Part shown: positions 26,044 to 27,037 of the stretch, one piece after another
Layout: each line of letters opens with the position of its first letter
Numbering within the stretch: position 1 is the first letter of the stretch
Source of the DNA: Escherichia coli
GTDB taxonomy: Bacteria; Pseudomonadota; Gammaproteobacteria; Enterobacterales; Enterobacteriaceae
Reading direction: 5' to 3' (one strand)
DNA length: 64,000 nucleotides
NCBI RefSeq assembly: GCF_016026235.1
Contig: NZ_CP065613.1
The notes under the pieces: generated by a model
Told to the model about the DNA's origin: nothing
The model's input: only the letters and a program-made list of their open reading frames with translations
Databases searched by the model: none
Program-made: the position numbers and the translations under genes

Positions 26044-27037
26044 TGCGTATTCGCTACGGTTGGGAACTGGCTCTTGCCGCACTGCTCGTTATTGAGATTG
26101 TCGCATTTGGTGCAATTAACCCGCGGATGTTAGATCTCAATATGTTGCTGTTCAGCACCAGTGACTTTATCTGCATTGGCATTGTCGCCCTACCGCTGAC
26201 GATGGTGATTGTCAGTGGCGGGATCGATATTTCGTTTGGTTCGACCATCGGCCTCTGCGCCATTGCATTGGGCGTACTGTTTCAAAGTGGTGTGCCGATG
26301 CCGCTGGCGATACTCCTGACCTTACTGCTCGGCGCATTGTGCGGGCTGATCAACGCCGGATTAATTATCTATACCAAAGTTAACCCGCTGGTGATTACGC
26401 TTGGCACGCTGTATCTGTTTGCTGGAAGCGCTCTGCTGCTTTCCGGGATGGCCGGAGCGACGGGGTACGAAGGTATTGGTGGATTCCCGATGGCGTTTAC
26501 AGATTTCGCTAACCTGGATGTGCTGGGACTCCCCGTTCCGCTGATTATCTTCCTGATATGTCTCCTCGTTTTCTGGCTCTGGCTGCATAAAACCCATGCC
26601 GGACGTAATGTGTTTTTGATTGGGCAAAGCCCGCGCGTGGCGCTTTATAGCGCGATTCCAGTTAACCGCACCTTATGTGCGCTCTATGCCATGACGGGGC
26701 TGGCGTCTGCGGTCGCCGCTGTGCTGCTGGTGTCGTATTTTGGTTCAGCACGTTCCGATCTCGGTGCGTCGTTTCTGATGCCCGCCATCACCGCCGTGGT
26801 GCTTGGCGGGGCCAATATTTATGGTGGTTCCGGTTCCATTATCGGCACCGCCATTGCGGTTTTATTAGAGTGGGATATTTGCAACAAGGTTTGCAAATGG
26901 CAGGAGTGCCAAATCAGGTGTCCAGCGCCCTTTCCGGTGCGCTACTTATCGTCGTTGTCGTAGGTCGTTCCGTTAGCCTGCATCGCCAGCAAATTAAAGA
27001 GTGGCTGGCGCGTCGGGCCAATAACCCATTGCCATAA
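26043..27037 (+). pseudogene. lsrD: AI-2 ABC transporter permease gene lsrD with frameshift near the 3' end
   Basis: ORF 26043..26963 ends in out-of-frame tail ...LLEWDICNKVCKWQECQ; the +2 frame (ORF 26675..27037) carries a plausible C-terminus ...YLQQGLQMAGVPNQVSSALSGALLIVVVVGRS...; shift site about 26866..26872. Confidence 0.75.

Follow-up and report, generated by a model that had tools for sequence, protein, structure and literature searches.

Is the reading frame of lsrD, which encodes a permease of the AI-2 importer, genuinely broken near its 3′ end in this strain of Escherichia coli, and, if so, how did a second 2-bp insertion of the same kind come to lie in lsrA, another gene of this operon? 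The question was raised by a stretch of 64,000 nucleotides, referred to here as the window, for which an earlier note had proposed a duplicated AG in lsrD and had named slipped-strand mutation, parallel selection against AI-2 import and a systematic assembly artefact as possible causes. The present analysis suggests that the AG duplication in lsrD is very probably a vertically inherited loss-of-function mutation, which came second as the LsrACDB importer decayed within a single E. coli lineage.

Organization of the lsr locus and of the window

The gene order lsrKR / lsrACDBFG-tam is collinear with that of the annotated O157 and O145 genomes, lsrRK being divergent from lsrACDBFG. On the minus strand, the gene of the AI-2 kinase, lsrK (20611..22203), is intact and encodes 530 aa, while that of the repressor, lsrR (22282..23235), is full length (317 aa) and displays a lineage-specific L265Q replacement; the resulting LsrR-Q265 allele is listed in 32 blocks of the sequence collection searched. 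On the plus strand, lsrC, coding for the second permease (25015..26043), is an intact ORF of 342 aa whose exact allele is found in public data, and lsrB, coding for the periplasmic AI-2 binding protein (27049..28071), is an intact ORF of 340 aa whose exact allele is present on at least 1,000 contigs. The genes lsrF (28098..28973, 291 aa) and lsrG (28997..29287, 96 aa), on the same strand, are also intact. Full-length ORFs are seen in every gene of the locus except lsrA and lsrD.

Several features of the window outside the lsr locus were recorded in comparison with the O145 reference. An IS2 element (4356-5686), with an InsD-like transposase of 301 aa (NF006918), interrupts a ydeQ-like fimbrial gene. 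A 6.3-kb insertion (42699-48970) lies between marB and eamA as compared to O145:H28; this island, whose products are a 6-phospho-beta-glucosidase, a LamB-like carbohydrate porin, a cellobiose-type PTS IIC and a GntR regulator, is shared with other E. coli, d1-58 among them. The end of the window (61161-64000) diverges from the reference after ydfJ and contains a serine recombinase/invertase-like ORF (62359..62949) and an ORF of 191 aa (63047..63622); a junction with a different prophage or island is the probable explanation.

Frameshift in lsrD and its protein product

The lsrD gene (26043..27037, plus strand) is 995 bp long in the window, as compared to 993 bp (330 aa) for the intact gene. 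The sequence of positions 26862-26876 is TTATTAGAGTGGGAT, and the AGAG that it contains (26867..26870, plus strand) is a tandem duplication of AG, which converts the ancestral TTAGTGG to TTAGAGTGG, with a change of frame at codon 276; either AG may be regarded as the inserted copy. The frame that starts at the ATG at 26043 terminates at a premature TAG (26961..26963, plus strand), giving a product of 306 aa with a nonsense tail of 31 residues (...AVLLEWDICNKVCKWQECQIRCPAPFPVRYLSSLS, its end given as ...AIAVLLEWDICNKVCKWQECQIRCPAPFPVRYLSSLS), whereas the frame offset by two encodes the intact C-terminal stretch of 55 letters and has its stop at 27037. In the alignment with the intact lsrD of O157:H7 TR01, the sole difference in 131 columns is a 2-bp gap (TTATT--AGTGGG versus TTATTAGAGTGGG), which bears out the suspicion that a duplicated AG frameshifts the 3′ end of the gene. 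Removal of the AG in a repair test yielded a LsrD of 330 aa that is an exact and very common E. coli allele, present on at least 1,000 contigs; the +2 frame, read in the earlier note as a plausible membrane C-terminus, is the C-terminus of LsrD.

The effect of the frameshift on the protein is evident from the match to the NCBIfam profile of LsrD (NF011612). For the 306-aa product the score is 500.3 bits (cut-off, 500) and the alignment spans positions 1-272 of the 322 in the profile; the repaired 330-aa protein aligns with positions 1-321 at 597.3 bits. Positions 273-322 of the profile are missing from the former. As compared to intact LsrD (NF011612, the K-12-type protein of 330 aa), residues 1-275 are identical to the very common E. 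coli allele, and the 55 C-terminal residues are swapped for 31 unrelated ones in this strain. A crude hydropathy scan places the last two hydrophobic segments of LsrD at residues ~259-279 and ~288-310, and both are destroyed by the frameshift. The product is LsrD by descent and is no longer an intact member of the family. With 2 bp added at 26867, a premature stop and the conserved C-terminus gone, lsrD is a frameshift pseudogene.

Frameshift in lsrA

The gene of the importer ATPase, lsrA (23484..25021, plus strand), is likewise a pseudogene, split by a frameshift into an N-terminal ORF of 322 aa (23484..24452, plus strand) and a C-terminal ORF of 191 aa read from an internal ATG (24446..25021, plus strand; the ORF length ranges from 191 to 214 aa). 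The lesion is GAGA (24335..24338, plus strand), a tandem duplication of GA that converts the ancestral CCTGACGC to CCTGAGACGC, and it appears in the alignment with the reference (CCTGAGACGC versus CCT--GACGC) as a 2-bp gap at 24335-24336. It lies 2,532 bp upstream of the lsrD insertion, confirming that a second 2-bp insertion of the GA/AG type is located in the same operon within 2.6 kb. Removal of the GA restored a LsrA of 511 aa that is identical to the public protein WP_096854335.1.

The two fragments match positions 1-285 and 321-510 of the 510 positions of the LsrA profile (NF011967), and positions 286-320 are found in neither. The 28-residue stretch missing from both fragments is taken, in line with ABC ATPases in general, to hold the second ATP-binding domain's Walker-A-type motif. 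Two added base pairs, a premature stop and the loss of conserved sequence characterize lsrA, like lsrD, as a frameshift pseudogene. The premature stop overlaps an in-frame ATG (ATGCTGA; context ATTATGCTGA), an arrangement resembling the natural lsrA/lsrC junction. Reinitiation at this overlap is conceivable and could keep the downstream genes translated.

Occurrence of the insertions in complete genomes

The frequency of both insertions was determined in a collection of 5,426 complete RefSeq E. coli genomes. The AG insertion was found in none of the 4,328 genomes having the lsrD site, and the GA insertion in none of the 3,037 having the corresponding part of lsrA; in both searches, the best match to the 66-base site-centred query was 64/66 (97.0%). 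The frameshift reading would have had to be abandoned if reference alleles shared the lsrD sequence, and the insertion is absent from all 4,328 of them. The nearest complete genomes display 98.7% identity over the 12 kb of the lsr locus and 99.2% over the 25 kb downstream, and the lineage is without a close relative among the complete genomes searched. At least 80% of the 12-kb locus is covered in 4,156 of the 5,426 genomes, which agrees with a presence/absence polymorphism of lsr. A literature search, from whose scope the supplementary table of Brito et al. was left out, found no description of the +GA lsrA and +AG lsrD alleles.

Genuine mutations or assembly artefact

The occurrence of two look-alike insertions so near each other in a single-contig assembly of 4.56 Mb could indicate a long-read assembly in which GA/AG dinucleotides had been inserted systematically, the more so as this assembly alone displays two further oddities, namely a deletion of 17 bp and a tandem duplication of 64 bp without mismatches. 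The products of 306 and 322 aa are, however, public in exactly this form (STL95492.1 and STL95479.1, respectively) and were found on 21 and 23 contigs of NCBI and Logan assemblies. One of them, L010 (UGFA01000002.1, GCA_900449985.1), matches the window at 100% identity over 20,969 bp, and the two were counted as one assembly. Both insertions are also present in the independent assemblies of ERR926423, SRR17652795 and SRR13627083, each of which has one or two private SNPs; these are therefore distinct isolates. Moreover, one relative carries the lsrA insertion alone, which is not expected of a systematic error.

The indels of the window itself point the same way. When ~50 kb of it was aligned to O145:H28 RM12761, the only 2-bp indels were those of lsrA and lsrD, so that no enrichment of GA/AG insertions is seen across the window. 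Comparison of indel coordinates with the list of ORFs placed the other indels outside coding sequence, as single bases, with few exceptions: events in the autotransporter gene, which is a pseudogene in the reference too; one beside a diguanylate cyclase gene whose reference copy carries a frameshift; and, in ydeE, two events that compensate each other. The artefact suggested by the earlier note can in practice be dismissed, and the lsrA and lsrD insertions are genuine, reproducible and heritable mutations rather than sequencing errors. An engineered frameshift produced by restriction-site fill-in was also considered and rejected, since neither of the duplicated dinucleotides is a palindrome and diverged natural isolates have the mutations in common.

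The two oddities mentioned above are a perfect 64-bp tandem duplication (19907-20034), located at the 5′ end of the autotransporter gene and in its upstream region, and a 17-bp deletion inside the same gene (17924). Among the loci covering these positions, both are found only in the window and L010, the relatives L011, L012 and L013 being without them; they could be strain-specific changes or assembly errors. A further tandem duplication, of 7 bp (TGCCTTT), is present in L013 (SRR17652795) at the position corresponding to 31519 of the window, where it splits uxaB into ORFs of 88 and 404 aa.

Order of the two mutations

The relatives allow the two hits to be placed in order. GAGA in lsrA is common to L010-L014, while AGAG in lsrD is absent from L011 and from L006, L007 and L008. 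The relative L011 (CABWDS010000025.1, GCA_902503985.1), retrieved among the contigs encoding the 322-aa LsrA fragment, has the lsrA frameshift and three clade-defining SNPs together with an intact lsrD of 330 aa, and is devoid of the IS110 element in the autotransporter gene. L006 and L007, retrieved among the contigs encoding the repaired LsrA, are the closest relatives outside the clade, and both genes are intact in them. The GA insertion and the SNPs at 20583, 21156 and 22442 are assigned to the stem of the lsrA-frameshift clade, inclusive of L011, and the AG insertion to the sub-clade consisting of the window/L010, L012, L013 and L014. Four derived SNPs (27702, 31081, 33698 and 34144, polarised with O145) are private to L011, which also differs at 16843, a site that is not polarisable. 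The table of variable sites revealed no homoplasy or conflict.

The order was from an intact operon to the lsrA frameshift and from there to the frameshifts of both lsrA and lsrD: lsrA broke first, because L011 combines the lsrA frameshift with an intact lsrD and lacks the IS110 element, and the outgroup relatives are intact. The element in question belongs to the IS110 family (398-aa transposase, NF033542) and is located at 14748-16196, inside an ECSE_1600-type autotransporter gene. It is present in the window/L010, L012 and L013, the contig of L014 starting too far downstream to tell. Its absence from L011 indicates that the element and the lsrD frameshift were acquired on one and the same branch. 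Reversion as the origin of the intact lsrD of L011 was rejected, since a precise excision of the IS element would also be required.

The phylogenetic confinement of the insertion also bears on whether a functional LsrD might still be made, either by recoding (ribosomal +1 or -2 frameshifting) or by phase variation, as might be suggested by the C-terminal frame, which is still intact beyond the insertion. Neither a long homopolymer nor a known slippery heptamer is seen at the lsrD site, and the insertion is restricted to one sub-lineage, being found in 0 of the 4,328 genomes and not in the closest relatives. Phase variation would have to operate on two repeat units only (AGAG, GAGA), yet none of the double-mutant isolates departs from the two-unit state, and the distribution of the single unit follows the phylogeny. 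In addition, lsrA of the same operon is broken too, and the protein listing of L016, a PGAP-annotated relative, is without an entry at the lsrA position, which is consistent with a pseudogene call. A functional LsrD by either route is next to impossible on this evidence.

Origin of the 2-bp insertions

In lsrA as in lsrD, a dinucleotide formerly present as a single unit has been doubled in tandem, and the two events are therefore not microsatellite slippage. Of the slipped-strand mutation invoked by the earlier note, the tandem-duplication origin fits both sequences, but slippage in a microsatellite does not, the dinucleotide having been present only once. Short tandem duplication through primer-template misalignment during replication would account for the insertions. 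Two +2 purine-dinucleotide duplications together, both of one rare type, would be somewhat unexpected under a generic indel spectrum, and the GA/AG type shared by both hits is a mild curiosity.

An origin of each insertion by transient template switching, with an imperfect direct repeat close by as the template, was also weighed. The lsrA junction creates a 9-mer (GAGACGCTC) that is identical to a copy 69 bp downstream, a match that only 2-3% of all dinucleotide duplications conceivable in lsrACDB would equal; at the lsrD junction AGAGTGG is formed, which recurs 131 bp downstream, but this match is unremarkable (p ~0.14-0.25). The joint probability (p ~0.006-0.015) is post hoc, and a plain tandem duplication accounts for both insertions in the absence of a template. 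Templating has weak evidence in its favour at lsrA and none at lsrD, and such an origin appears very unlikely as compared to plain duplication.

The same part of lsrA has been altered elsewhere in the species. In an independent lineage (P0030 / L018-L020, 64 blocks of the collection) a GA was lost, converting CCGGAGAAATT to CCGGAAATT at the position aligned to 24349-24352 of the window. As this deletion lies ~14 bp downstream of the GA insertion site of the present lineage, 2-bp GA indels arose at least twice in this stretch of lsrA. The outcome is similar to that in the strain under study, with a 2-bp GA/AG indel in lsrA, an N-terminal ORF of 323 aa and the same C-terminal ORF of 191 aa. The two cases differ in that the deletion removed a unit from a (GA)2 tract, as in classical slippage, occurred on another allele background and left lsrD intact.

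Relaxed constraint or selection

The decay of the importer proceeded stepwise. The GA duplication first truncated LsrA just before the region of the Walker A motif of the second nucleotide-binding domain, and in a sub-lineage the AG duplication then exchanged LsrD residues 276-330 for the 31-residue nonsense tail. A dead ATPase may have freed the permease from purifying selection, so that drift or hitch-hiking could carry the second hit to fixation. The lsrA-then-lsrD order that was found is the one expected if constraint was relaxed once the first gene had been inactivated, and relaxed constraint appears to be the simplest reading of the lsrD hit. As the branch carrying this hit has 0-1 SNPs in ~18 kb, its timing cannot separate drift from selection.

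Positive selection for the loss of AI-2 import, either as a signal-blind (cheater) state or as an adaptation to the niche, would have favoured each of the two hits, the second maybe by removing a costly or toxic orphan permease. In this context, Brito et al. have argued for a pseudogenisation of lsr at a rate above the neutral one and for a balanced polymorphism in the presence/absence of the operon (PMC3595036). Inactivation of lsrA has occurred independently in P0030/L018 and in P0017. The isolate L008 (DRR015801), in which lsrA and lsrD are intact, has a lsrK called as 444 aa near the contig start (window 20611-20978) and a 15-bp in-frame deletion in lsrC (25602-25616), leaving 337 aa; in this sister isolate, the lsr operon appears to be decaying independently. 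Three of the 13 SNPs of the clade fall in lsrR, a gene accounting for ~5% of the sequence under comparison, and each of them is nonsynonymous (L265Q at window 22442 in all clade members, G161E in L012 and H28Y in L013), an enrichment that is post hoc (binomial ~0.025). The overlap of the premature lsrA stop with an ATG, by which the downstream genes may have stayed translated, may leave room for selection against an orphan permease.

After the truncation of LsrA, however, a second hit in the transporter should add little phenotype and fits drift equally; lsrC, lsrB, lsrK, lsrF and lsrG are still intact, and the sample is tiny. Positive selection is possible on these grounds, though rather unlikely. 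The parallel selection against AI-2 import proposed in the earlier note has to be qualified in the same way, since the hits are sequential within one lineage and in the order that relaxed constraint predicts.

A continuing selection on the lineage to dismantle and rewire AI-2 reception is quite unlikely, although the lsrA hit followed by that in lsrD, the three independent missense changes of LsrR, the recurrent tandem duplications of the clade and the neighbouring GA indel of lsrA elsewhere might be read in this manner. The tandem duplications (2, 2, 7 and 64 bp), along with the neighbouring lsrA indel, could reflect a local or lineage-specific mutational bias supplying the variants.

The strain is expected to clear extracellular AI-2 slowly; LsrK, LsrR, LsrF and LsrG are intact. 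The predicted loss of Lsr-mediated AI-2 import is based on the phenotypes of K-12, in which knockouts of lsrA, lsrB, lsrC or lsrD remove AI-2 less efficiently (PMC3595036).

Precedent and significance

Decay of the lsr operon is well documented. Brito, Rocha, Xavier and Gordo (2013, Genome Biol Evol, PMC3595036) found the complete operon in 38% of 44 E. coli/Shigella genomes and at least 8 independent inactivations; the 34 lsr pseudogenes comprised 26 large truncations, 6 small indels (usually 1-2 bp) and 2 stop codons, and IS elements were frequent near lsr. The present case concerns the same locus and process, a luxS-independent loss of the AI-2 receptor/importer in which several genes per operon are often affected, and IS elements are near here as well, IS2 at ~21 kb and the IS110-family element at ~11 kb from the lsrD site. 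Unlike the published cases, the +GA lsrA and +AG lsrD alleles are found in none of the 5,426 complete RefSeq genomes, and the order of the hits can be read from relatives. The view that two insertions of the same type in one operon are unusual was overstated, as multi-hit decay of lsr by 1-2 bp indels is on record (PMC3595036). The case is a real but ordinary stepwise pseudogenisation of an operon known to be prone to decay, with new alleles.

The apparent anomaly of the locus is thereby removed: the look-alike frameshifts are real mutations and reveal no problem of the assembly. In the annotation of the strain, lsrA and lsrD should be entered as pseudogenes, and an impaired uptake of AI-2 is to be predicted. 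For the biology of E. coli, the locus provides a cleanly ordered example, with the ATPase lost first and the permease second, of how lineages of this species repeatedly lose the reception of AI-2 while the production of the signal is kept.
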